Position numbers and translations under genes: made by a program. A stretch of 64,000 nucleotides of DNA from Naegleria gruberi (Eukaryota). Positions 18,860 to 64,000 of this stretch are shown here, piece after piece. Location: the NCBI GenBank assembly GCA_000004985.1, contig GG738854.1. One strand, given 5' to 3'. The notes under the pieces were generated by a model. The model had not been told where the DNA came from and searched no databases. It was given only the letters and a program-made list of their open reading frames with translations. Within the stretch, counting starts at the first letter, position 1; every line of letters begins with the position of its first letter.

Positions 18860-19425
18860 TTTTTTTTGTGTTTGTTTTCTTCTCTCGGAGGGAATTTCGG
18901 CGACAACCTTAATAAGGTGAAAATAAAGTTTTGAGAATTTGAGCGAAAAAATTGTTCATTTTGATTGAAGATTTTTTAAAGGTTCGTTTTTGGGTATGCA
19001 ATATTCTGGAACTACTGACCTTTCGTTTATTTACAATGAATGTGAAAAGAAAGTGAACTAATTCTAATACATAAATATTATTGTAAAGAATAAATATTAT
19101 CATTTTACAATAAATATTTAAGAGAGTTTCACTTCCTTTCTGTGAGGTTCTTTTATGGAAAATTGGCGCGAAAAGGATCAAAAAAAATTCAAAAAAAAAT
19201 ACAAAAATGATTCTCTATCTCTTGCTCTTTCTCACGGTTGCTCTGATGGTAGCAGCCTCATTGTTGCTCCCCTTCGTAACGAGTATACAATATCCGAAGA
19301 GGAATCGTTTTCAATTAAAACAAGCACAACATTTTCCGATATGGTTGGTTGTATTGGTAGAGTTTAGGAGGAGAGTTGTGTTTTTATTGGATTTTATTGT
19401 TCATTATATTCATGTAAATTATACA

Positions 19426-23655: not shown

Positions 23656-23747
23656 TCCATTTTAACTTTTGTATTTAACTGAATGGGAATACAATTTTGT
23701 AAACTATTTACATTTTCATAATCCAAATTATTTTAAATTTAAAAAAA

Positions 23748-24635
23748 ATGAGCAAACACAATACTTGGGGAGGATCATCACCTTCATTATCGTCGACCAC
23801 TAAATTAATTGTCGGATTATTTGTCCTCCTATTGATTGTACAAACAACAATCGGATCAACATTAAATTTATCGAGTACAAGAATTGATACCACTCTCAAT
23901 ACAACACAAATAGAATTTCGACCTCTTGATCCATCAGCACCATCGTCTATTCCTAATTATAATGTTGGAACACAAGTATCGCTGAGTTTTTCCTTCTTTT
24001 CTATTGAACATTGTTCTTTTGATATTGTAGTAGTATCAAAACACTCTAAAAAGGAATATTCGACAAATGGTGGAATTTATCAATACAATACTAATGGAAC
24101 TATTGAAGAAAAGGAATTAAAAATTACAATTCCTACTGAAATTGATACTGCTGAAGGAGCTTATGTTTTCAGATTAAAAAAGAAGGTTGAAAAGGTATCT
24201 CAAGAATTGAATTTTGACTCTCCAGAATTTACTGTCACTGTCAATGTTGACAATACATCATTATCATGGCCAACTATTGTTTTAATTCTCTTCTTCCCAC
24301 CAGCTCTGCTCCTAGTTGCAGTTGTAGGTGGTTGTGTCATGTGTAAACGACAACGTCGAGTCCAACAACAAGAATTGGAACAACACGATTATGAACAACA
24401 ATTGGATGATGATGTTGATATCAATTTCGATCACGATGATGAAGAGGAGAATCATCACCGTCACCACCACACCTCCAAGCACCATCAAACAAATAAGAAG
24501 AAGGAAGAACCCAAGATGGCCTTTGTCTTGGAAGATGACGATGATGATGAGCCAATGTCTAGTAGTCATATTCACATTGATGATGATGATGAAAATGAAC
24601 GTCGTGGCAATTTCTACTATACCAAGAATATTTAA
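23748..24635 (+). CDS. Type I membrane protein with a His/Asp-rich cytoplasmic tail
   Basis: ATG at 23748. Signal/anchor LIVGLFVLLLIVQTTIGS. Ectodomain of about 160 aa with N-glycosylation sequons. TM WPTIVLILFFPPALLLVAVVGGCVMC. Tail reads EENHHRHHHTSKHHQTNKKKEE...LEDDDDDEP...HIHIDDDDENE. Confidence 0.5.
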   Translation: MSKHNTWGGSSPSLSSTTKLIVGLFVLLLIVQTTIGSTLNLSSTRIDTTLNTTQIEFRPLDPSAPSSIPNYNVGTQVSLSFSFFSIEHCSFDIVVVSKHSKKEYSTNGGIYQYNTNGTIEEKELKITIPTEIDTAEGAYVFRLKKKVEKVSQELNFDSPEFTVTVNVDNTSLSWPTIVLILFFPPALLLVAVVGGCVMCKRQRRVQQQELEQHDYEQQLDDDVDINFDHDDEEENHHRHHHTSKHHQTNKKKEEPKMAFVLEDDDDDEPMSSSHIHIDDDDENERRGNFYYTKNI

Positions 24636-28129: not shown

Positions 28130-31100
28130 ATGTCTGTTGCAGAAGCTTCTAATAATGGTGCAGCTGCAACTACATTTATTGAAAGGAGTATTAATTTTAA
28201 TGAATCATCAACCATACAACAATCATCATCACAACAACGAGAAAATCAACATGTGTCGGGAAGTTTTATAGGAAGCAATACGAGTAGTTCATCTAGCTCG
28301 ACCAATTTTTCAGCAACAATGATGAAAAGTATTAAGGAAGCTATTGTGTCCTATATAATTTCAATGCAATACAAGCCACTGAGGCAGGGCAAAAAGTTTA
28401 TGCTTCTCTCTGTTTTGTATCATTTGTATATAATGTGGATTTCCATCTTTTTACCAACACTAGGCGATTATAATTGGGGAGAATATGCAAATTGGATATT
28501 CAAGGCAGTAAATTATCCAGTAACCCTTTCACTAGATTTAATTCCCTATGGTGGCATTGAGGCTTTGGGAGCAATTGTGTTTGCAATCAGTGCCCTATCT
28601 GTTCTTGTTGTTATAATGGCAGTTGCGAGTGTTCATAGGACGAGTAAACACATTGAGAGGGTGAGATTAATAGTAATGGTGACTGGACTTGTTCTCTCTC
28701 TGTTGGGACCACTCTTTGCATTTATTCTGACGGGCTTTACAGATTGTGAATACAAGCAAAAGGTGTACTTTGAGAGTATAGATGATAAGGCATATGCTCT
28801 TTCTAGATATCCAGAAGCAGAGTGCTTTGGGGATAATATGTACCTTTACATTATTTCAATTATTGCAGTATTCGGAATTTGTCTATCCATATTATGCACC
28901 TTAATTTCCTTCTCATCAAGTTGGAAGAGTGACATGGTATTCAAAACAGTTGTCCATTATCCATTATCATACTTGGTTATTAGTAATATTCTTCAAATGT
29001 TCATCATGTATTTTATTCATGATGAGTTCATGTATGGAAGAGCAATCCTTCACTTGATTATTTCAGCAAGTTGGATTCCTATACTATTCTATGAACTGCC
29101 CTTCCAATACAGATATGAAAATTCAATTTATTCTGGAGTGGGTTTTGCAAGAATAGGAGCATCAATTGGTTCTCTGATATCTTCCCTTGCCAACTCAGCT
29201 GACAATTCAGGTTTTGGTTTGGGAATGTTTGGCTTAACGTTCGCTCTTATTATCATTTCATTCATTGGTGGAGTAATAGGAATGGAATTATACATTAGAT
29301 TATCTACTCACAAGATTAGAAGTTACATGTTGTCTATTGTTGAGAAAACTCTATCTGTTAGTGGATCATTGCCTTCGAAATTCAAAGAAAGAGCCAAATA
29401 CATTCTGGAAAAAGAGGCCACTTCAATTTACTCCCATTTCATTGAAACACAACAGGCAGGATATTTAAGAATATTTATTCGATTCAGCATTGATCAAAAC
29501 TCTAAAAACAGCTCAGAAGCCATCCTCACAAACACTGATTTATCTCTGTATTTCATTAAGGGTGCGTCAACTCAAAGATCATTCAACGATAGCAAAACTC
29601 TTCTCTATTCATCCATGTTAATTTATTTCAACTATGGAGATGGTAATTTAGGATCAATGTATGCAAAAGGGTTGTTGAAAATCTTGGCAAAGCAAAAATT
29701 GAATATACCAGAAGTAATTATGTTAACAGAGTTTTCTAAGGAAATTAAGGATGAGAATAGTGTAAATTCATCTGATCTCGAACAATTATTGAATAAGGTA
29801 GAGAGTAATATAGCTGAATTGAAGTCCCTCCATAAGGCCTTCTGGAAAGAATATTTGCAAGATGTAATTGAAGTGGGAACTTTGGAATCGATTAATAACA
29901 AGTGTTCACAACTGATGAGCCAATGCGAAACTATTTTCAATAATAGGCTTTCCAGATACAAACACAATAAGAATTTCCTCAGAGCGTATGCACAATTTTT
30001 AAACGAAATCAAATTTGACAAGGAAACTGCCTTTGAAATATTCCAAGACGCAGCCATTGTTGACGAAGATGAGCCATCTAAAAAACGTGTTCTTGCTAAG
30101 AGTAATTTATTCACAGAATATGGTAAACAGCATTCTGAAACCAATTTGGGGTTTTCTCTAGATGGCTTAAAGGCTAGCAACCAAAAGAGTATGGACATTG
30201 AAACAATTCATGAAGATCAAATGTTGGATGGAGTTGAGAATGATCCACTTGCAAAACGGGAGTTCATTTTCAAAAGTGCTCTCTCCCAACCACAACAAGG
30301 AGGATATCATATGGGATCTGTTATCCTGTTCTGCTTTATATCCTTCTCTTTTGTGCTCCTTGCCTTAGTTTTGAATGTTTATTATTCAGTGGAAGTTCTT
30401 TCAAATGTCAAGTTTGTTCAGCAAGTTTGTGAGCCAACTGTTTCTTCATATGCCATTTTGAAACAAATCAGAAATAATCAAATACTCCTTCAAGCTAAAA
30501 ATCAGGGTCTAGATGTTGATGAAACAGATATTATGGGTATTCTTAAGGACGAGACAAACGAAAATATTACTTCCATACAATCTGTTTGGAAGGAGAGACT
30601 TAATTTCTATGTTGAACATATTGAACATGTTAAAAAGATGTCACAAGGTAAAATTGTTGGAAAATTCACACCTGAAATGTATGAAGATTACAATAGTGAA
30701 ACAAATGAAATATTTGTTCCTGTGATTCAAACAAAGAATCAAAATTCATTCATTGAGGTCATTAAGAAGAATGTTTCACTCTCTGAAATATCATCACTCT
30801 TGATTGATATTGTTGAAAATTATCCATCAGGAGGATACAATGAAACATTGAAAGAATATGATTTCATGTTGGTATTCTTGAATAGGGAAACTTTCACAAA
30901 TGCCTTTGTGAAAACATGTTTCAGTTTCTTGGAAAGATGTGAACTTGACTCCAAAAATTTCAACAATTACTACCTATACTTTTATGTTTCTGTATTGTCA
31001 TTTTACATTCTTTACACAGCCATCTATATTCTCTATGTAAGAATTGAATTCTCATTTATCACTAGAACCATTAGATTAATGGAACGCAGTATTTCAAAGG

Positions 31101-33157
31101 ATATTGTAGGTAAAATCTATCAAGATTTGGCAAAGAAAGTAGAAGAAAATGCTTCTTTGGGATTTCTCAAATCAATAATCAGCCAACCAAAAGTGTTTTC
31201 TGTTTTTTGTATTGCTTGTTTGGCTTTTCTTACAATACTTGCATCTTCAATGATGTTCGTAGAGTTGAGAATTAATTCTGATCTAGGATATTCAACAATG
31301 TTGAGTGTGCATAAGACCGCCGAAAATCTTGTTTTGGTTCAGTCAATTGGATACAAACTAAATGAGATTTTCTTTTCCACTCTATCACCCTCTTTATATA
31401 ATGACCCTATCTTAATCAATGGAACCCTCTTAGATTATTACAGGGTGGAGGTGAGATACAATGTAACAGATTTGAGAAGAAGTTTTAACGAATTGATTTA
31501 TGGTAAGCTTGGAGGAAATTCAGCAATTTTAGGAATGATACCAAGAATTGATCAGATTATTACAGGAACTGATTGTTCTTCTGGCAATTGTACAAGTTTG
31601 GAAAACTCTTTGGACGAATTTACAATTGGATCTAGCAAGTTCAACGAAGATTTGCTTAAAGGAACTTTTACAGAGGAAGAGTTGGTTTTAAAGAATGCTG
31701 TTGTGGATGAATTGAGCCACCACCTAAGTGTAGACTTTCTTGAATTTTTGGCCTTGTTTACCATTGCAAGATCAATACCTTCTACTGCTATTGCACTAAT
31801 TTTCAGTATTCTTGGATTTCTCACAATAGTTATTTTCTATTGGTTACTGGTTCGAGTGTTTCAAATTCATTGGAATGATGTATTCCATTTAAGAAGCATG
31901 TTGAACTATGTAGATTATGACTACTTGGATTCTTATGACTCTTTAAGAAACTTTATTCTATACCATCAACTGCCTTCTAGAAACCTGTTCAAAAAGAAGA
32001 ATAAGATTGCCTCAGCAGAGGGTGACGAATCGAAGGTGAAGAATATTCTCAATGCAGCAGTTGACGGAGCTATTCTTTGTAATAGTACATGTGATATTGA
32101 AATATTCAATCCAGCAGCTCAAAGAATGTTTGGATGCAAACAATCAGATACTTTGGGAACTCCAATTTTCACTCTCTTTGATAAAGAATCGAGGACAGAG
32201 TTGGAGAGAGTCATTTCTGAATTGATTAAGAATGCCAAATCGACAACATCTTCTGAAAGTCTTGGTGAAACTGTTGAATTGGATTGTGTGAGAAAGAACT
32301 TGACAAAATTCCCTGCGAAAATCAATTTGTTCTCAACACTGTTTGATGGAAAACCAGTTGTGACATGTTTCATTAAGGATGCAACTTCTGAAAAGAAACA
32401 AAATGCATTGTTGGCTGAAGAAAAGAAAAAATCTGAAAATCTATTGAGATCTATTTTGCCAGAAAGTGTTGCCAATAGATTGAAATCTGGTGAAACATTC
32501 ATTGCTGAGAAATTTGCAGATATTACTTGTTTCTTTTCTGACATGGTTGGATTCACTCAAATGTCTTCAACTCTCAATCCAACTCAATTGGTTGGAATGT
32601 TAAATAATATTGTGAATGGATTTGATGCCTTAACAGACAAATATAGTTTGGAAAAGATCAAGACAATTGGAGATGCCTATTTCTGTGTTGGAGGAATTGG
32701 AAATACACAATCTGATCACCCAGAAAGAATACTTCGTTTCTCAATGGACATATTCTTAGTAGTACGTAACTATAACGAGGAGAATGGGAAAGAATTTGGA
32801 CATCAAATCAATATTCGAGTTGGAGTGAATACAGGAAGTGCAGTTGCAGGTGTGATTGGTACAAAGAAATTTGCCTATGATTTGTGGGGTGATACCATCA
32901 ACACTGCTTCTCGAATGGAATCAACATCAATTGCTGGAAGAATTCAAATTTCCAGATCAACTTATGAAAGAGTTTATGATATGGGTCTTGAATTTGAAGA
33001 AAGAAGTGTTGAAGCAAAAGGAAAGGGTTTGTGTCTCACTTATTTAGTCAAATCTCATCACCATGCACAGGCCATAGTTTCTGATAACGAAATCATTGAT
33101 TCTGACCTCGAGGTTTCCCTAACTACAAAACCAGAGGATGCAAAGGCAGAGATATAA
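28130..33157 (+). CDS. Multi-TM PAS-domain class III adenylyl cyclase (paralog A)
   Basis: ATG at 28130. Single 1,675-aa ORF. About 10-12 TM helices in the first 420 aa. Two further TM segments sit mid-protein. PAS-like segment ILNAAVDGAILCNSTCDIEIFNPAAQRMFGCKQSDTLGTPIFTLF. Cyclase domain LLRSILPESVANRLKSGE...FSDMVGFT...KIKTIGDAYF...YDLWGDTINTASRME has both metal-binding Asp, the transition-state N and R, and the K/D substrate pair that indicates ATP. Confidence 0.85.
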   Translation: MSVAEASNNGAAATTFIERSINFNESSTIQQSSSQQRENQHVSGSFIGSNTSSSSSSTNFSATMMKSIKEAIVSYIISMQYKPLRQGKKFMLLSVLYHLYIMWISIFLPTLGDYNWGEYANWIFKAVNYPVTLSLDLIPYGGIEALGAIVFAISALSVLVVIMAVASVHRTSKHIERVRLIVMVTGLVLSLLGPLFAFILTGFTDCEYKQKVYFESIDDKAYALSRYPEAECFGDNMYLYIISIIAVFGICLSILCTLISFSSSWKSDMVFKTVVHYPLSYLVISNILQMFIMYFIHDEFMYGRAILHLIISASWIPILFYELPFQYRYENSIYSGVGFARIGASIGSLISSLANSADNSGFGLGMFGLTFALIIISFIGGVIGMELYIRLSTHKIRSYMLSIVEKTLSVSGSLPSKFKERAKYILEKEATSIYSHFIETQQAGYLRIFIRFSIDQNSKNSSEAILTNTDLSLYFIKGASTQRSFNDSKTLLYSSMLIYFNYGDGNLGSMYAKGLLKILAKQKLNIPEVIMLTEFSKEIKDENSVNSSDLEQLLNKVESNIAELKSLHKAFWKEYLQDVIEVGTLESINNKCSQLMSQCETIFNNRLSRYKHNKNFLRAYAQFLNEIKFDKETAFEIFQDAAIVDEDEPSKKRVLAKSNLFTEYGKQHSETNLGFSLDGLKASNQKSMDIETIHEDQMLDGVENDPLAKREFIFKSALSQPQQGGYHMGSVILFCFISFSFVLLALVLNVYYSVEVLSNVKFVQQVCEPTVSSYAILKQIRNNQILLQAKNQGLDVDETDIMGILKDETNENITSIQSVWKERLNFYVEHIEHVKKMSQGKIVGKFTPEMYEDYNSETNEIFVPVIQTKNQNSFIEVIKKNVSLSEISSLLIDIVENYPSGGYNETLKEYDFMLVFLNRETFTNAFVKTCFSFLERCELDSKNFNNYYLYFYVSVLSFYILYTAIYILYVRIEFSFITRTIRLMERSISKDIVGKIYQDLAKKVEENASLGFLKSIISQPKVFSVFCIACLAFLTILASSMMFVELRINSDLGYSTMLSVHKTAENLVLVQSIGYKLNEIFFSTLSPSLYNDPILINGTLLDYYRVEVRYNVTDLRRSFNELIYGKLGGNSAILGMIPRIDQIITGTDCSSGNCTSLENSLDEFTIGSSKFNEDLLKGTFTEEELVLKNAVVDELSHHLSVDFLEFLALFTIARSIPSTAIALIFSILGFLTIVIFYWLLVRVFQIHWNDVFHLRSMLNYVDYDYLDSYDSLRNFILYHQLPSRNLFKKKNKIASAEGDESKVKNILNAAVDGAILCNSTCDIEIFNPAAQRMFGCKQSDTLGTPIFTLFDKESRTELERVISELIKNAKSTTSSESLGETVELDCVRKNLTKFPAKINLFSTLFDGKPVVTCFIKDATSEKKQNALLAEEKKKSENLLRSILPESVANRLKSGETFIAEKFADITCFFSDMVGFTQMSSTLNPTQLVGMLNNIVNGFDALTDKYSLEKIKTIGDAYFCVGGIGNTQSDHPERILRFSMDIFLVVRNYNEENGKEFGHQINIRVGVNTGSAVAGVIGTKKFAYDLWGDTINTASRMESTSIAGRIQISRSTYERVYDMGLEFEERSVEAKGKGLCLTYLVKSHHHAQAIVSDNEIIDSDLEVSLTTKPEDAKAEI

Positions 33158-33356
33158 TGAATCCATTTTGGTAATATAGAATCATTTTATTTGCCAATAT
33201 ATTTTCCTTTTTTGTCACTTAACGATTCTGACAACCAATGATGGCGATGTTAGTGAGTTACAGAAATGGCGGGTAAAACATGAAATCTCAATTCTTATTA
33301 AAAAAAACATCATTAACCCTTCTTGAATACAAAAAGATATTGGTTTGCTTTTTAAA

Positions 33357-36300
33357 ATGTCCGGGAGTGATGAGTTGGAGGCCTCTGCTATAGAAGACGA
33401 CCAAAGATCTAATTATTTCGAATCGAGGACTCATATGAAAGGAAATGGAGAAGGCTCAAGTATTGTTGGAAGTGCACTAAGTGTTCAATCGAATAATAGT
33501 ACAATAGCCTCGACAACTATGAGAACAGTGCAAACTGGAATATTGACTTTTATTTTGGCTCTACAGGATAAATCATACAAGAAATCAAAGAGGTTTATTT
33601 TTATTTCAATACTGTATCATTTGTATATCATTTGGACTTCAATCTTCTTACCAACACTAGGCGAATACAATTGGGGAGAGTATGGAAGTTGGATTTTCAA
33701 AGCACTTAATTATCCAATCACATTTTCATTAGATTTGGTGCCCTATGAAGAGAGTGCTGCAATTGCAGGTGTCATTATGGCTGTCATCTTGTTGGGTTTG
33801 TTTTTTGTGTCATTTTCTGCTTGGACTGTTTATAGAAATAGCAAGTTGGTTGAAAAGATGAAAGTGGTAATGGCTGTGTCGAGTTTGGTGTTTTCAGTGC
33901 TGAGCAAACCATTTGCTTTTGTTTTGGCTGGTTTTATTGATTGTGACTTTTCAAAGACAGTTTACTTTGAAGATATTGATGATAATACTAATGCACTTTC
34001 TCGATTCCAAACAGTTGCTTGTTTTGGAGGTAACACGTACTTGTATGCACTTTCGATTATTTCAATGCTTGCATTTTCTCTAGTGATACTTTCAACTCAT
34101 TTTGCCTATTCTCCTAGTTGGAGGAGTAAGGTTGTGTTTCATACAGTTGTTGGTTGGCCCATTACCTATTTGGTTATTTCAAACATGCTTGAGATTTATC
34201 TAATATTCTTTATTCCAAAATCTGAAATTTGGGCAAGAGCTACTTTACATTTGGTAGCAGCCCTGACATTTGTTCCAATGATTCTAATTACACTTCCCTT
34301 TCAGAGACGTATTGAAAATTCCTTCTATCTTGCTGTAGCTTTTGCAAAGGTTGGATCTTCAATTGGTTCACTCATTTCTTCCTTGGTCAATTCTAATAAT
34401 AAGTGGGATTTAGGTCTTGGAATGTCAGGTTTAACAATTGGTCTCATTATTTTAGGTTTCTGTGTTGGATTCATTGTGATGGAGTTGTATATACTAAGAA
34501 CAATGGCTTTCATTAGACACAAGATGATTAAGGCCATCGAGAGAGGAGTTTCCATTTCAGATACTGCTCAAACTCAACTTTCAGAGTCTGCAAAAATGGG
34601 CCTTGAAAGAGAAGCTACAAATATCTATTCCTCACTTCATGAATCACAAAGTTTGAACAAGCTCAAAATATTTATTAGGTTTAACATAATCCGAAGAAGC
34701 AAGCAAACAAAGGCAATACTAGACGATACGGATATGTGTCTCGCATTTATTAAGGGTGTTTCTCATCAGAAAACATTCAATGATCCTTCTCTAATATTGT
34801 TCTCCAGTTTACTTATCTATGTCAACCATCCAGATGAATCGAATAGCTCAATTTTTGCCAATAGTTTGTTGAAAAAAACTACGCGAGTCAAGTTATCATT
34901 CTTTGAGAAAGTTACCCTTGGTGAGGTTACCAAAGAATTGAACATCTCTAAAAATGGTAAAGTTGCAAGAAACACAACAGACTTGGAATCATTGCTAGTT
35001 AGAGTTGATTCAAATTTTTCGCAACTCAAATCTCTTCACAAATCCTTCTGGAAAGAATTTTTACAAGATGTTGTTGACACTACTAACTTGGAAGTTATCA
35101 ATAGTAAATGTGCTCAATTGATGGCTGACTCTGAAAATATTTTCCACAATAGAATTTCAAGATATAAGAATAACAAAACCTTCTTGAGATCATATGCTCG
35201 CTTTCTAGATGAAATCAAGTTTGACAAGGATCAAGCTGCTGAACTCTTCCAAGAAGCAGCAACTATGGAAGAGGAAGAGCTTGCCACAAAGAGAAGGAGG
35301 CAGAGAAAGTTTAGTCGTGTTGTGCCCTATGATGGACCTGTAGTAAGCGTTGAACCTCCTGCATTCTCTCTCGATGGGTTGAGAAAGGGAACAAATGAAC
35401 CAATTACAAACCTAATGGATGATGATTTTGATGATCATATGTTGGATGGTGTTGAGAATGAACCTGCAACTAAGAGAGAGTATGTTTTCAAAGCGGCTCT
35501 AGCACAAAAGACCAACGGAGAGTTGCACGTGGCCTCTGTAGTAATGTTCTGCCTTCTTTCATTTGCAATAATACTTGTTTCCCTTGTGTTGAATGTGTAT
35601 TATTCAGAGGAAGTTCTTTCAAATGTCAAGTTTGTCCAACAAGTTTGTGAACCAACTGTTTCTTCATATGCAATCTTGAAACAAATCAGAAATAATCAAA
35701 TACTAATCCAAGCAAAGAATCAGGGTATTGGTGTTCAGGAAGCTGAACTAATTGACGTCTTGGAAATAGAAACAGATAGCAACATTACTGTAACAAGTTT
35801 AAATGAGATTTGGAAGGAGAGACTTAATTTCTATGTTGAACATATTGAACATGTTAAAAAGATGTCACAAGGTAAAATTGTTGGAAAATTCACACCTGAA
35901 ATGTATGAAGATTACAATAGTGAAACAAATGAAGTATTTGTTCCTGTGATTCAAACAAAGAATCAAAATTCATTCATTGAGGTCATTAAGAAGAATGTTT
36001 CACTCTCTGAAATTTCATCACTCTTGATTGATATTGTTGAAAATTATCCATCAGGAGGATACAATGAAACATTGAAAGAATATGATTTCATGTTGGTATT
36101 CTTGAACAGGGAAACTTTCACAAATGCCTTTGTGAAAACATGTTTCAGTTTCTTGGAAAGATGTGAACTTGACTCTGTGCAATTTGATAACACTTTCCTC
36201 TATTTCTTTGTTGGTTCTGCCTGTTTTTATATTCTGTCCTCCCTAATTTACATTATTTACATCAGGATTCAATTCACTCTAGTTGCCAACACACTGGCAT

Positions 36301-38399
36301 TATACGAAAGACATTTAACAAAAGACTTGGTTGGTAAGATCTACCAAGAATTAGGAAAGAATGTTGATGAGAATTCTACCACTAGCTTCCTTAAATCTTT
36401 CATTACCAAACCAAAGGTATTTTCTTTTGTTTGTATCCTTTCTTTGGCTTTTCTTACAATTCTTGCATCATCAATGATGTTTTTGGAGTTGAGATTGAAC
36501 TCTGACTTGGGATTTTCAACCATGTTGAGTGTGCGCAAGACTGCAGAATCATTAGTGTTGGCCCAATCAATTGGGCACAAGTTGAATGAGCAGTTCATAT
36601 CAACACTTTCTTCATCTATTTACAATGATCCCTTGCTTGTAAACAACTCAACAATGAATCTATTCAGATATGAAGTGAGATATAATGTTACTGATTTTAG
36701 AAGAACATATAATGAGCTGATTTACGGAAAAATAGGAGTTTCACCAACCATTCTTGGCGCCATTCCAAAGATTGATGAAATTATTACAGGAACAGACTGT
36801 ACTGCTGGAAACTGCACAAGTTTGGAAAACACAGTCGATGAGTTCACTATTAAATCAAGCAAGTACAATGAGGATTTGATGAAAGGTGTTTTCTCTCCAG
36901 AGGAGCTAATTTTGAAAAACACAGTAGTTGATGGTTTGGTACATCATTTGTGTGTTGATTTGTTAGAGTTTTTGGCCTTGTTTACCATTGCTAGATCAAC
37001 ACCATCAACAATTATTGCACTTCTATTCGGTATATTTGGATTTTCTGCCGTAGTGTTATTTTTTGGCTTGTTGAACAAGGTGTTCCACAATCATTGGAAT
37101 GATATTTTCCATTTAAGAAACATGTTGAATTATGTTGGATATGATCACTTGGATTCCAGTGATCCTTTGAGAAACTATGCTTTGTACAATCAGTTACCAG
37201 GTAAGAATATATTCAAAAAGAAGAATAAGATTGCCTCAGCAGAGGGTGATGAATCCAAAGTAAGAAATATTCTCAATGCAGCAGTTGATGGAGCAGTGTT
37301 GTGTAACAGTGCATGCGATATTGAAATATTCAATCCAGCAGCTCAAAGAATGTTTGGATGCAAACAATCAGATACTTTGGGAACTCCAATTTTCACTCTC
37401 TTTGATAAAGAATCGAGGACAGAGTTGGAGAGAGTCATTTCTGACTTGATTAAGAATGCCAAATCGACAACATCTTCTGAAAGTCTTGGTGAAACTGTTG
37501 AATTGGATTGTGTGAGAAAGAACTTGACAAAATTCCCTGCAAAAATCAATTTGTTTTCAACACTGTTTGATGGAAAACCAGTTGTGACATGTTTCATTAA
37601 GGATGCAACTTCTGAAAAGAAACAAAATGCATTGTTGGCTGAAGAAAAGAAAAAGTCTGAAAATCTATTGAGATCTATTTTGCCAGAAAGTGTTGCCAAC
37701 AGATTGAAATCTGGTGAAACATTCATTGCTGAGAAATTTGCAGATATTACCTGTTTCTTTTCTGACATGGTTGGATTCACTCAAATGTCTTCAACCCTCA
37801 ATCCAACTCAATTGGTTGGAATGTTAAATAATATTGTGAATGGATTTGATGCCTTAACAGACAAATATAGTTTGGAAAAGATCAAGACAATTGGAGATGC
37901 CTATTTTTGTGTTGGAGGAATTGGAAATACACAATCTGATCACCCAGAAAGAATGCTTCGTTTCTCAATGGATATTTTCCAAATATTGAGAACCTACAAT
38001 GAACAGAATAGAAAGGAATTTGGACATCAAATCAATATTCGAGTTGGAGTGAATACAGGAAGTGCAGTTGCAGGTGTGATTGGTACAAAGAAATTTGCCT
38101 ATGATTTGTGGGGTGATACCATCAACACTGCTTCTCGAATGGAATCGACATCAATTGCTGGAAGAATTCAAATTTCCAGATCAACTTATGAAAGAGTTTA
38201 TGATATGGGTCTTGAATTTGAAGAAAGAAGTGTTGAAGCAAAAGGAAAGGGTTTGTGTCTCACTTATTTAGTCAAATCTCATCACCATGCTCAAGCAATC
38301 ATTACGGATGATGTTGTTGATTTTGTTCCAGAAGAAGAAAAGGATGAGCAAGACTTGGAAGTAAGCTATCCTGTTAGGTCCAGTAAAGATGAAGAATAA
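33357..38399 (+). CDS. Multi-TM PAS-domain class III adenylyl cyclase (paralog B, tandem duplicate)
   Basis: First ATG at 33357 (MSGSDELEA). The ORF-track start at 33345 is a TTG. Same architecture as paralog A. The N-terminal half is roughly 50-60% identical to A at protein level. The 3' ~1.1 kb and an internal ~0.37-kb block are >=99% identical to A at nucleotide level. Confidence 0.85.
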   Translation: MSGSDELEASAIEDDQRSNYFESRTHMKGNGEGSSIVGSALSVQSNNSTIASTTMRTVQTGILTFILALQDKSYKKSKRFIFISILYHLYIIWTSIFLPTLGEYNWGEYGSWIFKALNYPITFSLDLVPYEESAAIAGVIMAVILLGLFFVSFSAWTVYRNSKLVEKMKVVMAVSSLVFSVLSKPFAFVLAGFIDCDFSKTVYFEDIDDNTNALSRFQTVACFGGNTYLYALSIISMLAFSLVILSTHFAYSPSWRSKVVFHTVVGWPITYLVISNMLEIYLIFFIPKSEIWARATLHLVAALTFVPMILITLPFQRRIENSFYLAVAFAKVGSSIGSLISSLVNSNNKWDLGLGMSGLTIGLIILGFCVGFIVMELYILRTMAFIRHKMIKAIERGVSISDTAQTQLSESAKMGLEREATNIYSSLHESQSLNKLKIFIRFNIIRRSKQTKAILDDTDMCLAFIKGVSHQKTFNDPSLILFSSLLIYVNHPDESNSSIFANSLLKKTTRVKLSFFEKVTLGEVTKELNISKNGKVARNTTDLESLLVRVDSNFSQLKSLHKSFWKEFLQDVVDTTNLEVINSKCAQLMADSENIFHNRISRYKNNKTFLRSYARFLDEIKFDKDQAAELFQEAATMEEEELATKRRRQRKFSRVVPYDGPVVSVEPPAFSLDGLRKGTNEPITNLMDDDFDDHMLDGVENEPATKREYVFKAALAQKTNGELHVASVVMFCLLSFAIILVSLVLNVYYSEEVLSNVKFVQQVCEPTVSSYAILKQIRNNQILIQAKNQGIGVQEAELIDVLEIETDSNITVTSLNEIWKERLNFYVEHIEHVKKMSQGKIVGKFTPEMYEDYNSETNEVFVPVIQTKNQNSFIEVIKKNVSLSEISSLLIDIVENYPSGGYNETLKEYDFMLVFLNRETFTNAFVKTCFSFLERCELDSVQFDNTFLYFFVGSACFYILSSLIYIIYIRIQFTLVANTLALYERHLTKDLVGKIYQELGKNVDENSTTSFLKSFITKPKVFSFVCILSLAFLTILASSMMFLELRLNSDLGFSTMLSVRKTAESLVLAQSIGHKLNEQFISTLSSSIYNDPLLVNNSTMNLFRYEVRYNVTDFRRTYNELIYGKIGVSPTILGAIPKIDEIITGTDCTAGNCTSLENTVDEFTIKSSKYNEDLMKGVFSPEELILKNTVVDGLVHHLCVDLLEFLALFTIARSTPSTIIALLFGIFGFSAVVLFFGLLNKVFHNHWNDIFHLRNMLNYVGYDHLDSSDPLRNYALYNQLPGKNIFKKKNKIASAEGDESKVRNILNAAVDGAVLCNSACDIEIFNPAAQRMFGCKQSDTLGTPIFTLFDKESRTELERVISDLIKNAKSTTSSESLGETVELDCVRKNLTKFPAKINLFSTLFDGKPVVTCFIKDATSEKKQNALLAEEKKKSENLLRSILPESVANRLKSGETFIAEKFADITCFFSDMVGFTQMSSTLNPTQLVGMLNNIVNGFDALTDKYSLEKIKTIGDAYFCVGGIGNTQSDHPERMLRFSMDIFQILRTYNEQNRKEFGHQINIRVGVNTGSAVAGVIGTKKFAYDLWGDTINTASRMESTSIAGRIQISRSTYERVYDMGLEFEERSVEAKGKGLCLTYLVKSHHHAQAIITDDVVDFVPEEEKDEQDLEVSYPVRSSKDEE

Positions 38400-45948: not shown

Positions 45949-47718
45949 ATGAAAACAATAACATACTTACTGTTGCTACTCTCTCTTGTGGCCACAATTA
46001 CATGCCAACAAGAACAAATCACCGTAACCATTCCACAAGGTTCCTACATTGGTGTGTCCACCAATAACCAAACTAAATCCTTCCTTGGTGTCAGATATGC
46101 TCAAACCACAGAAGGAATTAATCGTTTCAGGCCACCAGTTTCAGTTTCCTCCATGAATTCAACTGCCATCTTCAATGCCACATCCTTTGGCAACATTTGT
46201 GTCCAAACTCCAGATTCTAGCATTACATACACTGAACCACAAAGTGAAGATTGTTTATTCTTGAATATTTGGGCTCCAGTCGGTGCCTCACCAACAAATC
46301 AATATCCAGTCATGTTCTGGATTCATGGTGGATCCTTCATTCATGGAACTGGTAATATCTATGATGGAGAACATTGGGTAAAAACCTCAATTGAGAATAA
46401 TGTTCCAATTGTCTTTGTGTCCATCAATTATAGACTGGGAGTTTTTGGGTTCTTGGCTGATGACTTGTTAAAAAGTGAAAACGGACTCACCAATACAAAC
46501 TTTGGATTGTTGGATCAATTAGAAGCATTGAAATGGGTTCAAAGCAATATTGCTAATTTTGGAGGTAATCCAAGTCAAATTACCATTTCCGGAGAAAGTG
46601 CTGGAGGAATTAGTACTTTGGTTTTGCTTGCAAGTCCTCTTTTGAGTCAAGTTCCTGTTACTTCTGCTATCGTTCAAAGTGGGTCCTCTTTGAAATGGCT
46701 AATGCAAACAAGTACTGTAACTGCTCTTGCTGCTGGTTCAAATTTGAAAACAAATTTCAATTGTTCAACATTGGAATGTTTGAGAAATATAACAGTTGAT
46801 AGTTTAATTACCTATCAAGCTGCCAAGGCACCAACTGCATTCACTGTAACTTTCGATAATTATGTCATTACAAACAATACGTATGATGTAATTGACAATA
46901 ACAAGTTTACCATGGTCAACTTGTTGATAGGTGCCACAAGGAATGAAATGGGCTATTTTACTTGTAGTTCTTTTCCTTCAAATATTACTGCATATCAAAT
47001 GCAACTCGCATTCAGTTCATATTTTGGAGCTACAAAGACAGTTCAATTCTTCCCTCAATTGTCCAATTATTACAACATTTCAAATTATCAAGATAACCTT
47101 GCCTATTTCAATGATGTTCTAACACAAGCTGCTGTTCAATGTAATGCAAGATATCTAGCTGCTTCCTTCTCCAAAAAGTCTTCTTTGAATGCCTATTTCT
47201 ATATCTATGATCATTACTTTCCCTTCTCAACATCATGTCAAAAGAGCATGCACGCTATTGAAATTCCAATCCAATTTCCTTCAATATTCAAACATATGAA
47301 AGGAGCTGAGGCTTACTCACTCACTGCTTCTGAATTGGAGCTCTCAAGACAAGTAATTGTTTATTGGTCTAATTTTGTGTCGAGTGGAAATCCAAATAGA
47401 AACAATTCAGGAACGAATTTGAGAACTAACCAAACTACATGGAATTCCTACTCTACTTGTTCTGATAATTATCTTGTTATTCAAAGTGGATCAAACTATG
47501 AATCTTCAGAAATACTTGGAAAGACATGTCCTTTCTGGAACGTGTATGATGAGGTTCCAATAATTCCATGTGTCACTCCTGCTTCTTCAAATTCTACACC
47601 AATTGTAGTGACATCAACTGTACTCCCAAAGAATTCTACAAGGGTTAATGGAGTTGGTTCATTGTTGTCTGTTTGGTTGGCTTTGTGCTTTGCTTCCTTA
47701 ATGATCTTGTTTCAATAA
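45949..47718 (+). CDS. Type-B carboxylesterase / lipase (alpha/beta hydrolase), secreted or GPI-anchored
   Basis: ATG at 45949. Signal peptide MKTITYLLLLLSLVATITCQQ. Oxyanion-hole motif FWIHGGSFIHGTG. Nucleophile elbow ISGESAGGIS. A catalytic His is plausible at KSMHAIEIP. The C-terminal hydrophobic tail GVGSLLSVWLALCFASLMILFQ looks like a GPI-anchor signal. Confidence 0.8.
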   Translation: MKTITYLLLLLSLVATITCQQEQITVTIPQGSYIGVSTNNQTKSFLGVRYAQTTEGINRFRPPVSVSSMNSTAIFNATSFGNICVQTPDSSITYTEPQSEDCLFLNIWAPVGASPTNQYPVMFWIHGGSFIHGTGNIYDGEHWVKTSIENNVPIVFVSINYRLGVFGFLADDLLKSENGLTNTNFGLLDQLEALKWVQSNIANFGGNPSQITISGESAGGISTLVLLASPLLSQVPVTSAIVQSGSSLKWLMQTSTVTALAAGSNLKTNFNCSTLECLRNITVDSLITYQAAKAPTAFTVTFDNYVITNNTYDVIDNNKFTMVNLLIGATRNEMGYFTCSSFPSNITAYQMQLAFSSYFGATKTVQFFPQLSNYYNISNYQDNLAYFNDVLTQAAVQCNARYLAASFSKKSSLNAYFYIYDHYFPFSTSCQKSMHAIEIPIQFPSIFKHMKGAEAYSLTASELELSRQVIVYWSNFVSSGNPNRNNSGTNLRTNQTTWNSYSTCSDNYLVIQSGSNYESSEILGKTCPFWNVYDEVPIIPCVTPASSNSTPIVVTSTVLPKNSTRVNGVGSLLSVWLALCFASLMILFQ

Positions 47719-55613: not shown

Positions 55614-56103
55614 TAAACAATTGCGAAATTTATCCTTATGGTCATAACTACCATGTGTTTCTTTTCCACAATTGGTCTCTCATCTATATTCTATAAGAGT
55701 TGACTCTTTCTACCTGATTTCAATTCAGATAGTTTCCAAAATTTGTACAACACTTCCAAACAATCATGATGTCAATCCCTCCTCATATCATGAAGTGAGG
55801 AATCATATTTATATGAAGAATAACCTCAGAATAATGCCACGTCTGGAGATTGGCTTCACACTTAAATTTAAGCAATTTGGAAAAATATCATTCATCATTA
55901 AACTCACAAGAAATCAAACCGTATTGGTATTTTCAATTCCAATCGAATAAATAGCATTAGAAATCAAACAAGCAATTGTTTAATATTAAAAAACATCTTG
56001 AAATGAATCAAAATAAAATCAGTAAGCAACATAAAATGAAGTTTGGTTATCGTTCCGTACTCACTAGATCTTCATTATTATTGATCTACATAATCATTGA
56101 TAT

Positions 56104-56760
56104 ATGTTGTGTGTCAGGGTTTGGTTAGGATTCAGAGTTGATTTATTTGGGTTATTTAAGAGATTACTTAGTGAAGATTCATATCATTGATTATATTTCT
56201 TATCATCTATTAATGATGTAAATTTGATGGTTTCATTTCTTGTATTGATAGATATTTAAAGGTCAGGTCAGTACTAACTTTTGAATTATGGACTTTGAGA
56301 AGTCAAATGTTTGGGACGTGAATCTACTCATTAGATTGAATAGGTTTTGCTAATAAAAGAACATTTCATTGATTTATTGATTATAACGGTCAAATTGAGT
56401 TGAATGGAAGTGAATCACATGTTGATTGATCGTGGTTGGGTTTGGTTAGGATTCAGAGTTGATTTATTTGGGTTATTTAAGAAATTAATTAGTGAAGATT
56501 CATACCATTGATTATATTTCTTATCGTCTATTAATGATGTAAATTTGATGTTTTCATTTCTTATATTGATAGATATTTAAAGGTCAGGTCAGTACTAACT
56601 TTTGAATTATGGACTTTGAGAAGTCAAATGTTTGGGACGTGAATCTACTCATTAGATTGAATAGGTTTTGCTAATAAAAGAACATTTCATTGATTTATTG
56701 ATTATAACGGTCAAATTGAGTTGAATGGAAGTGAATCTAATGTTGATTCATCGTGGATGG
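56104..56760. repeat. Subtelomeric tandem repeat, 2 x ~321 bp, about 97% identical
   Basis: GGGTTTGGTTAGGATTCAGAGTTGATTTATTTGGGTTATTTAAG... occurs at 56117 and again at 56438. The two copies are collinear through ...GTCAAATTGAGTTGAATGGAAGTGAATC. A third copy breaks off after about 8 nt. Each unit starts with a telomere-like GGGTTTGG. Confidence 0.8.
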
Positions 56761-57120
56761 GTAGTTTCGCCACGAAGTGGTGCAACTACCAACCTTTGTA
56801 GATTGAATCAGGTTGATTTGCATCTCTCCAATATGTAGCATTATCAAGAGAGTGATTGTTCACCAATTCAATGATCAATATTCAATAATCGGTTTGATTT
56901 CAATCAATAGCTTGATCGTCAAGCTTTGATTTAATATTCCAGTAATCAACGGCAGTCTATTTTTAAATTTAATCAAAGACCATATATAGTATCTAGACTT
57001 TTATGATCTAGAAACTATCTAGATGTGTTCTATATTGAATAATATATTTGAAAATGAGAAGAATTAACTCTTCTATTGAGTTTTATTGGTATTGCAAGGT
57101 ATTTCGATTATAATAATCTA

Positions 57121-58141
57121 CACAGAAATCACACTTGAAATATAAACTGTATTACAATGTATGAGAAACATAACGGTGGTGGAATTAATCAATAAATAAT
57201 TGAAATGACTGAGATGGAATGTAAACTATGGTCTATTTGTTATGTAACGGTGACTAGACAGTGTCAATTTCATCAAATTATTTCAAACTGATAACATTCA
57301 ATAAAAAACCGTTCTATACACCAAACATGTCATACAGAATGAGTTTCAATATTTAATATTGTGAACTGACTCTGTTGGATACCATCTCTATAAATATAAC
57401 AAGATGAAAAGTGTCTACATTCAATTTCACATGCATGTTACTATGTAGAGTCATCATTATATCATCTAAATAGGTTGTATTTCATGTTTCAGTTACATTG
57501 ACTGTCTAGATATTGAGATGTGTATACTAAGGTTGATGAAATGGTACCTTCACTGATTATTGACATGAATATAACAATTGATCATATGATTCTTGTATAA
57601 GTATTTCATTATTCAATAATTGTGATATGATGGTAAAATTTAATTTTGGAATTAAGATTTTTCCTAATTGATTTCCTTAGATGTTCCTTAGTTGACTTGA
57701 AGATACAGAGCCACGAATATGAAACTCTCTCAGATTGTTCTCCTCATTAAGAGGAGTGTATTCATATTTGAACCTTGTATGATATTTTGTAAAATGAATG
57801 AGATGGAGTATATTCTATTTGTTGAAATGTGACAATTTGACAGATTGTTATTATTATCATATTGAATTCAATTCTAACACTATGTAATTGATACCAGATG
57901 TATATAACTGTGATTTAATGTATATGGTATAGTTTCATGATGATTGGATGTATTTTCATTGAGATAGAGTGTACACTTGGATATAAGCACTATTGACATT
58001 GAACATTATCTGACTGACTAATTGTACGTACTACGAATTGTTTCCAAACTATTAAAAGTGTATTTAATTGATGTGTAATCTATGTAGTATCGATTTTAGA
58101 ATGACTGTTCGTATAATGAGTGAGTTGGAGCATAATCTGTG
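57121..58141. repeat. Subtelomeric repeat family, copy 1 (~1.02 kb; carries a ~0.47-kb internal segment absent from copy 2)
   Basis: 57121-57235 and 57700-58141 align at roughly 85-90% identity with 59084-59654. Examples: GAAATGACTGAGATGGAATGTAAACTAT, GATTGTTCTCC..AAGAGGAGTGTATTCATATTTGA, ATGAATGAGATGGAGTATATTCTAT, and the terminal GAGTGAGTTGGAGCATAATCTGTG. There is no ORF. Confidence 0.7.
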
Positions 58142-59083
58142 ATTTTATTTCAAAAGTCTATAGTATTGTGATAGAGTTGACAACTCGACATCTACTGAAC
58201 CAATATTCATGAAATTGATACCATATGCTAATTAGAGTGGCTACATACCATGATATCAATTTCAGTGAAATTGGAGTTGTTTCTGGACCCTTCAGATTTC
58301 CATCCATTCTCTTGAAATATCCCCATGTACTATCTACTGAATGCATTTCTTGAAATGAAAATATATAATTTGAAGAAAGTCCACTTTATTTGAGATGTAG
58401 AACTCAATATTATCATTTATTATGAGATTGGTAACTTTTCCTATTGTATCATACTTAATTGTCTTAATTGACTAAAAGGATCAAGGAGAGATTTCAAATC
58501 ATAAAATAAATGATATTTTCGAGATGTACTATTGATTTCCAATCGATTGATATGTATTTTGTTGATTGAGGATGTAGTTCTCTATTTGAAGATTTCCTCC
58601 TGATCTGTTATGTCAACCTTGAAATTTCACCCTTTACCTTATTGAATGATGGAATGTTCACCAAAATGTCTAAAAACTGAATAACAAACACTCTTTGAGA
58701 TGTGAAACGTGATGGTAGTGTTTCGTAGAGAGTGTGGTTTTGGATCCCATGTCAACCCCTATTTATTAAGCTTTTCTCCTTAAATACATTAACAATATAT
58801 ATCACAAATGATGTCAAAAGATGGTGATTGTAATGGGGCACAATATACGGCTGATGTGAAATTGTTAAATATTTATATATATCAAGTTATGATGGTGGCT
58901 AGTGGTAATAAAATCACTTGATCAAAATTATTTTTGTCGCTTGATCAAACCGAAAAACGCGCGGAAAAGTTAAAAATAGATTCAAGTTGATGTGAAAATG
59001 GCTCAGAATCGAAAGGATTAACAAAGCTTACTACTATATTGGAAGTGAAAGTGCCATTTGGCACTCACTTCCATCAACTTTAT

Positions 59084-59654
59084 CATAGAAATCACTCTTG
59101 AAACATGAATTGTACTATAATGTGTGAGTAACATATTGGTGTTGGAATTGATCAATAACTCTTTGAAATGACTGAGATGGAATGTAAACTATATTCTAAG
59201 GTATATTGGTTGACTGTAAGATACTGAGCCATCAATGTGAAACTTTATCAGATTGTTCTCCTTATCAAGAGGAGTGTATTCATATTTGATACTTGTATTA
59301 TATTTTGTAAAATGAATGAGATGGAGTATATTCTATATGTTGAAATGTGACAATTTGACAGATTGTTATTATTATCATACTGAATTCAATTCTAAAACAT
59401 TAAAATTGATTCCAGATGTATATCAGTGTGATTAAATGTATCTGGTAAAGTTACATGATGGTTGAATGTACTTTCGCTGAGATAGAGTACACTTGGATAA
59501 AATCACTCTTGACATTGAACATTTACTGATTGACTGAATTAAAGTATCATGAATTGTTTTTAAACTTGTATAGATGTATATACATGGTGTATAGAATGTG
59601 TGTTATCAGTTCTAGACTAATTGCATATAAAATAAGTGAGTTGGAGCATAATCT
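59084..59654. repeat. Subtelomeric repeat family, copy 2. It is truncated by the assembly gap
   Basis: It is collinear with copy 1 apart from the 0.47-kb indel. It ends with ...AAGTGAGTTGGAGCATAATCT immediately before the N run. An imperfect 14-bp hairpin, GGAAGTGAAAGTGCCA-TT-TGGCACTCACTTCC, lies just upstream at about 59041-59072. Confidence 0.7.
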
Positions 59655-62600
59655 NNNNNNNNNNNNNNNNNNNNNNNNNNNNNNNNNNNNNNNNNNNNNN
59701 NNNNNNNNNNNNNNNNNNNNNNNNNNNNNNNNNNNNNNNNNNNNNNNNNNNNNNNNNNNNNNNNNNNNNNNNNNNNNNNNNNNNNNNNNNNNNNNNNNNN
59801 NNNNNNNNNNNNNNNNNNNNNNNNNNNNNNNNNNNNNNNNNNNNNNNNNNNNNNNNNNNNNNNNNNNNNNNNNNNNNNNNNNNNNNNNNNNNNNNNNNNN
59901 NNNNNNNNNNNNNNNNNNNNNNNNNNNNNNNNNNNNNNNNNNNNNNNNNNNNNNNNNNNNNNNNNNNNNNNNNNNNNNNNNNNNNNNNNNNNNNNNNNNN
60001 NNNNNNNNNNNNNNNNNNNNNNNNNNNNNNNNNNNNNNNNNNNNNNNNNNNNNNNNNNNNNNNNNNNNNNNNNNNNNNNNNNNNNNNNNNNNNNNNNNNN
60101 NNNNNNNNNNNNNNNNNNNNNNNNNNNNNNNNNNNNNNNNNNNNNNNNNNNNNNNNNNNNNNNNNNNNNNNNNNNNNNNNNNNNNNNNNNNNNNNNNNNN
60201 NNNNNNNNNNNNNNNNNNNNNNNNNNNNNNNNNNNNNNNNNNNNNNNNNNNNNNNNNNNNNNNNNNNNNNNNNNNNNNNNNNNNNNNNNNNNNNNNNNNN
60301 NNNNNNNNNNNNNNNNNNNNNNNNNNNNNNNNNNNNNNNNNNNNNNNNNNNNNNNNNNNNNNNNNNNNNNNNNNNNNNNNNNNNNNNNNNNNNNNNNNNN
60401 NNNNNNNNNNNNNNNNNNNNNNNNNNNNNNNNNNNNNNNNNNNNNNNNNNNNNNNNNNNNNNNNNNNNNNNNNNNNNNNNNNNNNNNNNNNNNNNNNNNN
60501 NNNNNNNNNNNNNNNNNNNNNNNNNNNNNNNNNNNNNNNNNNNNNNNNNNNNNNNNNNNNNNNNNNNNNNNNNNNNNNNNNNNNNNNNNNNNNNNNNNNN
60601 NNNNNNNNNNNNNNNNNNNNNNNNNNNNNNNNNNNNNNNNNNNNNNNNNNNNNNNNNNNNNNNNNNNNNNNNNNNNNNNNNNNNNNNNNNNNNNNNNNNN
60701 NNNNNNNNNNNNNNNNNNNNNNNNNNNNNNNNNNNNNNNNNNNNNNNNNNNNNNNNNNNNNNNNNNNNNNNNNNNNNNNNNNNNNNNNNNNNNNNNNNNN
60801 NNNNNNNNNNNNNNNNNNNNNNNNNNNNNNNNNNNNNNNNNNNNNNNNNNNNNNNNNNNNNNNNNNNNNNNNNNNNNNNNNNNNNNNNNNNNNNNNNNNN
60901 NNNNNNNNNNNNNNNNNNNNNNNNNNNNNNNNNNNNNNNNNNNNNNNNNNNNNNNNNNNNNNNNNNNNNNNNNNNNNNNNNNNNNNNNNNNNNNNNNNNN
61001 NNNNNNNNNNNNNNNNNNNNNNNNNNNNNNNNNNNNNNNNNNNNNNNNNNNNNNNNNNNNNNNNNNNNNNNNNNNNNNNNNNNNNNNNNNNNNNNNNNNN
61101 NNNNNNNNNNNNNNNNNNNNNNNNNNNNNNNNNNNNNNNNNNNNNNNNNNNNNNNNNNNNNNNNNNNNNNNNNNNNNNNNNNNNNNNNNNNNNNNNNNNN
61201 NNNNNNNNNNNNNNNNNNNNNNNNNNNNNNNNNNNNNNNNNNNNNNNNNNNNNNNNNNNNNNNNNNNNNNNNNNNNNNNNNNNNNNNNNNNNNNNNNNNN
61301 NNNNNNNNNNNNNNNNNNNNNNNNNNNNNNNNNNNNNNNNNNNNNNNNNNNNNNNNNNNNNNNNNNNNNNNNNNNNNNNNNNNNNNNNNNNNNNNNNNNN
61401 NNNNNNNNNNNNNNNNNNNNNNNNNNNNNNNNNNNNNNNNNNNNNNNNNNNNNNNNNNNNNNNNNNNNNNNNNNNNNNNNNNNNNNNNNNNNNNNNNNNN
61501 NNNNNNNNNNNNNNNNNNNNNNNNNNNNNNNNNNNNNNNNNNNNNNNNNNNNNNNNNNNNNNNNNNNNNNNNNNNNNNNNNNNNNNNNNNNNNNNNNNNN
61601 NNNNNNNNNNNNNNNNNNNNNNNNNNNNNNNNNNNNNNNNNNNNNNNNNNNNNNNNNNNNNNNNNNNNNNNNNNNNNNNNNNNNNNNNNNNNNNNNNNNN
61701 NNNNNNNNNNNNNNNNNNNNNNNNNNNNNNNNNNNNNNNNNNNNNNNNNNNNNNNNNNNNNNNNNNNNNNNNNNNNNNNNNNNNNNNNNNNNNNNNNNNN
61801 NNNNNNNNNNNNNNNNNNNNNNNNNNNNNNNNNNNNNNNNNNNNNNNNNNNNNNNNNNNNNNNNNNNNNNNNNNNNNNNNNNNNNNNNNNNNNNNNNNNN
61901 NNNNNNNNNNNNNNNNNNNNNNNNNNNNNNNNNNNNNNNNNNNNNNNNNNNNNNNNNNNNNNNNNNNNNNNNNNNNNNNNNNNNNNNNNNNNNNNNNNNN
62001 NNNNNNNNNNNNNNNNNNNNNNNNNNNNNNNNNNNNNNNNNNNNNNNNNNNNNNNNNNNNNNNNNNNNNNNNNNNNNNNNNNNNNNNNNNNNNNNNNNNN
62101 NNNNNNNNNNNNNNNNNNNNNNNNNNNNNNNNNNNNNNNNNNNNNNNNNNNNNNNNNNNNNNNNNNNNNNNNNNNNNNNNNNNNNNNNNNNNNNNNNNNN
62201 NNNNNNNNNNNNNNNNNNNNNNNNNNNNNNNNNNNNNNNNNNNNNNNNNNNNNNNNNNNNNNNNNNNNNNNNNNNNNNNNNNNNNNNNNNNNNNNNNNNN
62301 NNNNNNNNNNNNNNNNNNNNNNNNNNNNNNNNNNNNNNNNNNNNNNNNNNNNNNNNNNNNNNNNNNNNNNNNNNNNNNNNNNNNNNNNNNNNNNNNNNNN
62401 NNNNNNNNNNNNNNNNNNNNNNNNNNNNNNNNNNNNNNNNNNNNNNNNNNNNNNNNNNNNNNNNNNNNNNNNNNNNNNNNNNNNNNNNNNNNNNNNNNNN
62501 NNNNNNNNNNNNNNNNNNNNNNNNNNNNNNNNNNNNNNNNNNNNNNNNNNNNNNNNNNNNNNNNNNNNNNNNNNNNNNNNNNNNNNNNNNNNNNNNNNNN

Positions 62601-62957
62601 NNNNNNNNNNNNNNNNNNNNNNNNNNNNNNNNNNNNNNNNNNNNNNNNNNNNNNNNNNNNNNNNNNNNNNNNNNNNNNNNNNNNNNNNNNNNNNNNNNNN
62701 NNNNNNNNNNNNNNNNNNNNNNNNNNNNNNNNNNNNNNNNNNNNNNNNNNNNNNNNNNNNNNNNNNNNNNNNNNNNNNNNNNNNNNNNNNNNNNNNNNNN
62801 NNNNNNNNNNNNNNNNNNNNNNNNNNNNNNNNNNNNNNNNNNNNNNNNNNNNNNNNNNNNNNNNNNNNNNNNNNNNNNNNNNNNNNNNNNNNNNNNNNNN
62901 NNNNNNNNNNNNNNNNNNNNNNNNNNNNNNNNNNNNNNNNNNNNNNNNNNNNNNNNN
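59655..62957. other. Assembly gap (3,303 N, plus an isolated N at 62959)
   Basis: A contiguous run of n. The ORFs 59530..62988 and 59612..63013 in the six-frame track are artefacts of translating N as X. Confidence 0.99.
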
Positions 62958-63650
62958 GNAAGTGATGTATTTGATAGAGTTGGTCTGACTTGTCTTTTCT
63001 TAAAGTCAACCATAATATATCAACATTTACCTTCCCATGGTACCATTTCTGATTTTTATGATATGAAATTGAATTCTACATCATTATATATCATCTATAT
63101 CATGTTGGTAAAGTTTTAATAGGTGGTCTTTTTTCAAGATTTCATCCTTTTCATCATAGTTGACTATGTGTGGTTGAGGGAAGAAATCTTTAAATATGAA
63201 AGTGAAAATAAATTTGATATTCGATGTTTACTCATCAAATGGAACATTTTCATATCAGGATTCAATATGTTTTGATGAGAAACTCAAAAGTTATTGTTGA
63301 CCTCTTTTACCTCACATCTTCCCTTTTCTCTCTATACTTTTATATCTACAGACATGAAATTTTGAAATTTTATATGAAAGTGATTATGAATGTTGTTAAC
63401 GATGATATAGACTATATAATCTCATTAAAGGATTTTGAAATTAACATTCTTCCTATAGTTTCATTTTAGAAATTTTAATCTGACATTATTTACAAAGTTA
63501 ATATTTTATAAATTGAAAAACTAAATATACCACGTTATTCTACTCATCATTTCCAATCGAATGATATAAAATTTAATGATATTTGAATAAGTTTATAATT
63601 TTGGGCTAGGGTTTGAACATTGGGTTTAGAAGAATTCTATTTTTAGTTCT

Positions 63651-64000
63651 GGGTTTGGGTTTGGGTTTGGGTTTGGGTTTGGGTTTGGGTTTGGGTTTGG
63701 GTTTGGGTTTGGGTTTGGGTTTGGGTTTGGGTTTGGGTTTGGGTTTGGGTTTGGGTTTGGGTTTGGGTTTGGGTTTGGGTTTGGGTTTGGGTTTGGGTTT
63801 GGGTTTGGGTTTGGGTTTGGGTTTGGGTTTGGGTTGGGTTTGGGTTTGGGTTTGGGTTTGGGTTTGGGTTTGGGTTGGGTTTGGGTTTGGGTTTGGGTTT
63901 GGGTTTGGGTTTGGGTTTGGGTTTGGGTTTGGGTTGGGTTTGGGTTTGGGTTTGGGTTTGGGTTTGGGTTTGGGTTTGGGTTTGGGTTTGGGTTTGGGTT
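63651..64000 (+). repeat. Telomeric repeat array (GGGTTT)n, i.e. TTTGGG-type. About 58 units with occasional GGGTT variants. It runs to the end of the window
   Basis: A perfect hexamer array starts at 63651. 5-nt variants (GGGTT) occur at about 63835, 63878 and 63932. Degenerate telomere-like units GGGCTAGGGTTTGAACATTGGGTTTAGAAG lie just proximal at 63603-63632. The G-rich strand runs 5'->3' toward the terminus, as expected for a genuine right-arm telomere. Confidence 0.9.

Follow-up and report, generated by a model that had tools for sequence, protein, structure and literature searches.

The 64,000-nucleotide stretch of Naegleria gruberi DNA analysed here (the window) ends in an array of TTTGGG-type repeats, which is very probably a genuine chromosome-end telomere of N. 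gruberi NEG-M. Because TTTGGG is listed for N. gruberi in an earlier survey, by Fulneckova et al. (2013, Genome Biol Evol 5:468; PMC3622300), the repeat has been on record as the candidate telomere repeat of this organism since 2013, and the finding is correct but not new. That survey looked for TnAmGo-type arrays in 143 published genome assemblies, and its candidate repeats were chosen in silico, by position and orientation (PMC3622300). TTTGGG was named for N. gruberi among the unexpected candidate telomeric repeats (phyletic summary in fig. 1; table S5), that is, as an "unexpected" type in a previously unstudied group, and the authors call the repeat a candidate and point out that experimental work is still required (PMC3622300). 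The present case concerns the same organism and the same motif, uses the same kind of evidence and differs from the published candidate in nothing substantive. The earlier note on this DNA had offered the repeat as a taxonomic clue, which is true, although the clue had been in print since 2013. The 2013 survey was the only relevant paper that our literature search for Naegleria telomeres, TERT and telomerase RNA brought up, and a search for experimental proof of the N. gruberi telomere (Bal31, TRF, TRAP) found none. Beyond confirmation the significance is therefore small. The telomere, its polarity and the lineage of the organism proved recognisable from raw sequence, and what is contributed here is the base-level anatomy of one end, comprising 55 perfect units and three GGGTT units, a decayed block, a gap and subtelomeric duplications.

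The features on which the argument rests are the following, in order along the window:

55650..59654: subtelomeric zone, about 30% GC, with no ORF of more than 92 codons and with internal duplications
59655..62959: scaffold gap, consisting of 3,303 N (59655-62957), a called g at 62958 and an N at 62959
62960..63599: unique AT-rich telomere-adjacent DNA in the small terminal contig, 26% GC
63600..63629, + strand, same orientation as the array: degenerate telomere-like block, reading TTTGGG, CTA, GGGTTT, GAACATT, GGGTTT and AG in that order
63630..63650, + strand: AT-rich spacer AAGAATTCTATTTTTAGTTCT of 21 nt, separating the degenerate block from the array
63651..64000, + strand: telomeric array (GGGTTT)n, identified by direct reading, TRF, unit parsing and a dodecamer count

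The array holds about 58 copies of the hexamer. TRF reports it at 63650-64000 with period 6, 59.0 copies, 98% matches and a score of 681; no other short-period repeat in the window comes close to it in strength. When the array was parsed by G-runs and T-runs, the first GGG fell at 63651 and was followed by 55 perfect GGGTTT units, three GGGTT units and a final partial unit, so that 55 of the 58 complete units are perfect. The final unit is cut by the edge of the window, which terminates inside the array, and the array is therefore at least 350 bp long. A search for variants across the array units found no GGGGTT (0/58), and TTAGGG-type, A-containing and substitution variants were all absent. 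The dodecamer GGGTTTGGGTTT, allowing at most one mismatch, has 54 matches in the 64-kb window, every one of them on the + strand and within the array, against an expectation of 0.18 (maximum 2) from dinucleotide-preserving shuffles; outside the array neither (GGGTTT)2 nor (AAACCC)2 occurs anywhere in the window. The array abuts the 3' end of the window, and its G-rich strand runs 5' to 3' toward the sequence end, which to our knowledge is the polarity of all telomerase-made telomeres. The earlier note had called a terminal telomere of TTTGGG type here, and both the array and its outward-pointing G-strand bear this out.

The organism and its genetic code could be read from the genes of the same window. 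Six long ORFs were looked up in a protein collection by exact sequence, and two of the six matched. The ORF at 19207-20961 is XP_002680270.1 / EFC47526.1, exact over 585 aa, and the ORF at 45949-47715 is XP_002680278.1 / EFC47534.1, exact over 589 aa; both proteins are encoded on a 665,159-bp contig of Naegleria gruberi NEG-M, which the NCBI taxonomy places in Discoba; Heterolobosea; Naegleriidae. Both ORFs end at TAA, and with exact N. gruberi protein matches ending at this codon the genetic code of the window is standard, as had been claimed from the letters alone. The guess that the DNA came from a heterolobosean amoeboflagellate was likewise right.

Paramecium, whose macronuclear telomeres are of the form TTGGG(G/T), offers a familiar parallel to the hexamer. 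In that genus TTGGGG and TTTGGG are mixed through misincorporation on a single template, and TAA and TAG encode Gln. The two systems share the TTTGGG hexamer and a terminal array with the G-strand pointing out; they differ in that the Naegleria array has no GGGGTT among its 58 units, the code is standard and the lineage is Discoba. A Paramecium-type TTGGG(G/T) telomere was accordingly rejected, there being no TTGGGG mixture, no ciliate code and a heterolobosean lineage, and the earlier note had been justified in excluding a Paramecium macronucleus. The canonical TnAmGo repeats include TTAGGG, which is likely ancestral, TTTAGGG of plants and TTGGGG of Tetrahymena. With these the Naegleria repeat has in common a short T/G-rich unit, a G3 block, the polarity, the placement at the end and, presumably, an origin from telomerase. 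Unlike TTTAGGG and TTAGGG, the Naegleria unit contains no A, and compared with TTGGGG it has a T in place of one G. Another motif that contains G3T3 and lacks A is TTTGGGTTTG, a telomere variant of the insect Hyposoter dolosus described in the TeloSearchLR paper (PMC12134996); its unit is 10 nt long, the animal is a wasp and the origin is clearly independent.

The array lies at the end of a terminal contig of 1,041 bp (62960-64000), whose sole ORF is AT-rich and has 81 codons; an exact look-up of this ORF returned no gene on record. Compared with the remaining 59.6 kb of the window, the contig shows chance-level similarity only. Next to the array, the sequence GGGCTAGGGTTTGAACATTGGGTTTAG was located at 63603-63629, exactly as it had been quoted in the earlier note, which took it for a degenerate proximal copy. 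Exact GGGTTT occurs twice in the 50 bp adjoining the array and 14 times in the ~60 kb that remain (Poisson P ~7e-5). The location thus stands and the block is non-random by these statistics; that it represents older, decayed telomeric sequence is a plausible reading. The junction at 63600-63660 is clean, and could serve telomere-anchored PCR or be used as a probe.

On the inner side of the gap, GC content drops from about 0.34 to 0.25-0.30 in the last kilobases. The subtelomeric zone there contains a 321-bp unit present twice in tandem (56117-56762, 96-98% identity), each copy of which begins with GGGTTTGGTTAGG. This short sequence is telomere-like and oriented as the telomere is, and the units that bear it may be what is left of an interstitial telomeric sequence. 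Further along, a segment of ~450 bp at 57688-58138 is repeated at 59206-59654 with 73-88% identity, and the second copy reaches the gap. The assembly probably broke at 59655 because this duplicated copy runs into the gap. When the comparison is extended to 57121-58138 versus 59084-59654, the dispersed duplication appears as three collinear blocks of 73-88% identity, ~1.5-2.0 kb apart. Degenerate repeat copies together with an AT-rich, duplicated zone that has no long ORFs are typical subtelomere architecture.

In the model that we favour, the window would contain one N. gruberi NEG-M chromosome end, with which a 665-kb scaffold terminates. Read inward, the sequence shows a G-strand TTTGGG array of at least 350 bp, then a few decayed units and ~0.65 kb of unique AT-rich DNA, and, further inward, the ~3.3-kb gap, ~4 kb of duplicated DNA lacking ORFs of more than 92 codons and the first genes. 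From general telomere biology, the array would be made and maintained by telomerase (TERT with its RNA), the template of which would hold ~1.5 copies of CCCAAA. By the same reasoning the end would carry a single-stranded G-rich 3' overhang, and Myb/OB-fold end-protection proteins would be expected on the duplex and on the overhang; a run of four G3 tracts linked by T3 loops would also match the canonical motif of a G-quadruplex. Scanning the 64-kb window with Rfam and for tRNAs gave no hits, thus no telomerase RNA family, and the telomerase-RNA-template-like sequences CCCAAACCC and AAACCCAAA are absent from it.

To see the array against a background, JGI metagenome contigs were scanned for (GGGTTT)6, which occurs at no fewer than 120 loci. 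Among the 120 matches listed, 84 are internal; the rest stand at contig ends, 25 of them in telomere polarity and 11 in the wrong one. One of the 25, an AAACCC array (L064, LUMJ01000369.1, positions 2-66), lies on a compact contig with archaeal-type genes, namely AcnX, NFACT and the primase large subunit. Given the wrong-polarity terminal arrays and this archaeal-looking contig, finding (GGGTTT)n at a contig end does not in itself prove a telomere. The proteins of the window's ORFs and its subtelomeric DNA had no similarity to any of the 120 listed loci, none of which is N. gruberi-like at this level.

A single environmental assembly, GenBank JAESGV01 (JGI 3300037860 / Ga0401357), accounts for 12 of the 120 matches listed and thus has at least 12 array-bearing contigs (loci L005, L028, L029, L040, L054, L078, L080, L084, L085, L086, L106 and L120). 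Every one of the 12 listed has its (GGGTTT)n array at one end, in telomere polarity. In 11 of them the array lies at most 7 nt from the contig end, and in the twelfth it is followed by only 44 nt of degenerate G/T repeats. Each listed array joins a different unique, mostly AT-rich sequence, with no shared subtelomere. Whether the standard or a TGA-only code is applied makes essentially no difference to the longest ORFs (1034, 713 and 1254 codons), and a ciliate origin was rejected, since the ORF lengths fit the standard code. One contig (L086) encodes two PPR-DYW deaminases and a Ty3-like RT-RNaseH-integrase ORF that starts about 130 bp from the array. As to the identity of the source, a search with the PPR-DYW protein matched only distant plant PPRs (20-25% identity), a P4-ATPase fragment matched only unnamed environmental proteins, and Pfam found no phylogenetic marker on ten more ORFs. 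The 12 contigs with terminal arrays indicate that TTTGGG serves as a chromosome cap outside ciliates, in at least one other standard-code eukaryote, and by analogy this speaks for the telomere reading of the Naegleria array.

The three GGGTT units, which start at 63831, 63872 and 63931 (units 31, 38 and 48), had been attributed to telomerase slippage. Their presence was confirmed; slippage is no more than one possible cause, as each variant lacks a single T and none lies outside units 31-48. We lean slightly towards sequencing or consensus errors as their source. All three are the loss of one T from a homopolymer, and units 1-30 are flawless, so that the variants sit 180-280 bp into the array, in its distal 40%, or 870-970 bp from the start of a contig just 1,041 bp long that opens with low-quality n/g calls. 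From that length and those calls, the coverage was probably one or a few reads, and late-read homopolymer miscalls on so thin a contig would yield the pattern observed. In true telomeres the variants are usually proximal and the homogeneous repeats distal, which is the reverse of the gradient seen here. Against an error, shortened units do arise from the telomerases of other species, and a few GGGTT units are also found in short-read JAESGV01 arrays (L085 and L086). Base-calling error explains the pattern at least as well as telomerase slippage does. A broader proposal, in which the GGGTT units are genuine products of an imprecise heterolobosean telomerase and, at the same time, TTTGGG caps are common to a wider, unsampled set of standard-code eukaryotes of which the source of JAESGV01 would be an example, strikes us as rather doubtful when its two parts are taken together.

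A different question is whether the telomere belongs where the assembly has put it. The gap, which the earlier note did not mention, means that the terminal contig is tied to the gene-bearing sequence by scaffolding only, and its placement on this particular chromosome arm rests on mate-pair data. The array could then be a real N. gruberi telomere on a 1-kb contig that comes from another chromosome end and was mis-scaffolded here. The 3,303-N gap between the telomere contig and the scaffold is compatible with such an event, as are the lack of similarity between the DNA on its two sides and the fact that it opens within a duplicated segment (59206-59654), the context in which mate-pair links are least reliable. 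However, GC declines steadily toward the gap from 0.34 to 0.25, the 4 kb before it have no ORF of more than 92 codons, as would be expected near a real end, and the scaffolder oriented the contig with its telomere outward. We consider mis-scaffolding unlikely. The 3.3-kb gap and the duplicated subtelomere nonetheless mark a spot in the draft assembly to check against long reads.

Still less probable is a reading in which the assembly simply broke within an internal (GGGTTT)n microsatellite or satellite and no chromosome end is involved. What speaks for this is largely the environmental background, where 84 of the 120 matches listed are internal arrays of (GGGTTT)6 or more, 11 stand at contig ends in the wrong polarity and one terminal array is on a probable archaeal contig; in addition, only the proximal flank is visible, as the window ends inside the array. 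The longest internal array among the 84 listed, however, is 139 bp, and the Naegleria array, with at least 350 bp, is 2.5 times longer. The polarity is correct, decayed copies lie on the proximal side, the flank is AT-rich without a long ORF and no second copy of the array exists within the 64 kb. TTTGGG was, moreover, picked as the candidate telomere of N. gruberi by position and orientation (PMC3622300). We regard the internal-repeat explanation as very improbable.

We know of no vector with (GGGTTT)58. A cloning, adapter or vector artefact, which had been raised as a concern and for which one might point to the EcoRI site at 63632 in the spacer, 14 bp before the array, is effectively refuted, as that site is unremarkable in a window where GAATTC is present 36 times, the array runs without a break into AT-rich Naegleria-like DNA and degenerate copies oriented as it is, and TTTGGG was reported for N. 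gruberi in the 2013 survey (PMC3622300).

The remaining genes of the window agree with the suggestion of a signalling-rich, free-living protist. Two tandem paralogous ORFs of ~1,680 aa (28130-33157 and 33345-38399) have the same architecture, with TmcB-like TPR, PAS and class III adenylate/guanylate cyclase domains, and ankyrin and RCC1 proteins are also encoded, along with a cytochrome-b5 desaturase and a carboxylesterase. At 23655-23748, only ~95 nt separate a HIT-domain gene from the ORF that follows it on its strand, an example of the very dense packing of genes to within ~8 kb of the chromosome end.
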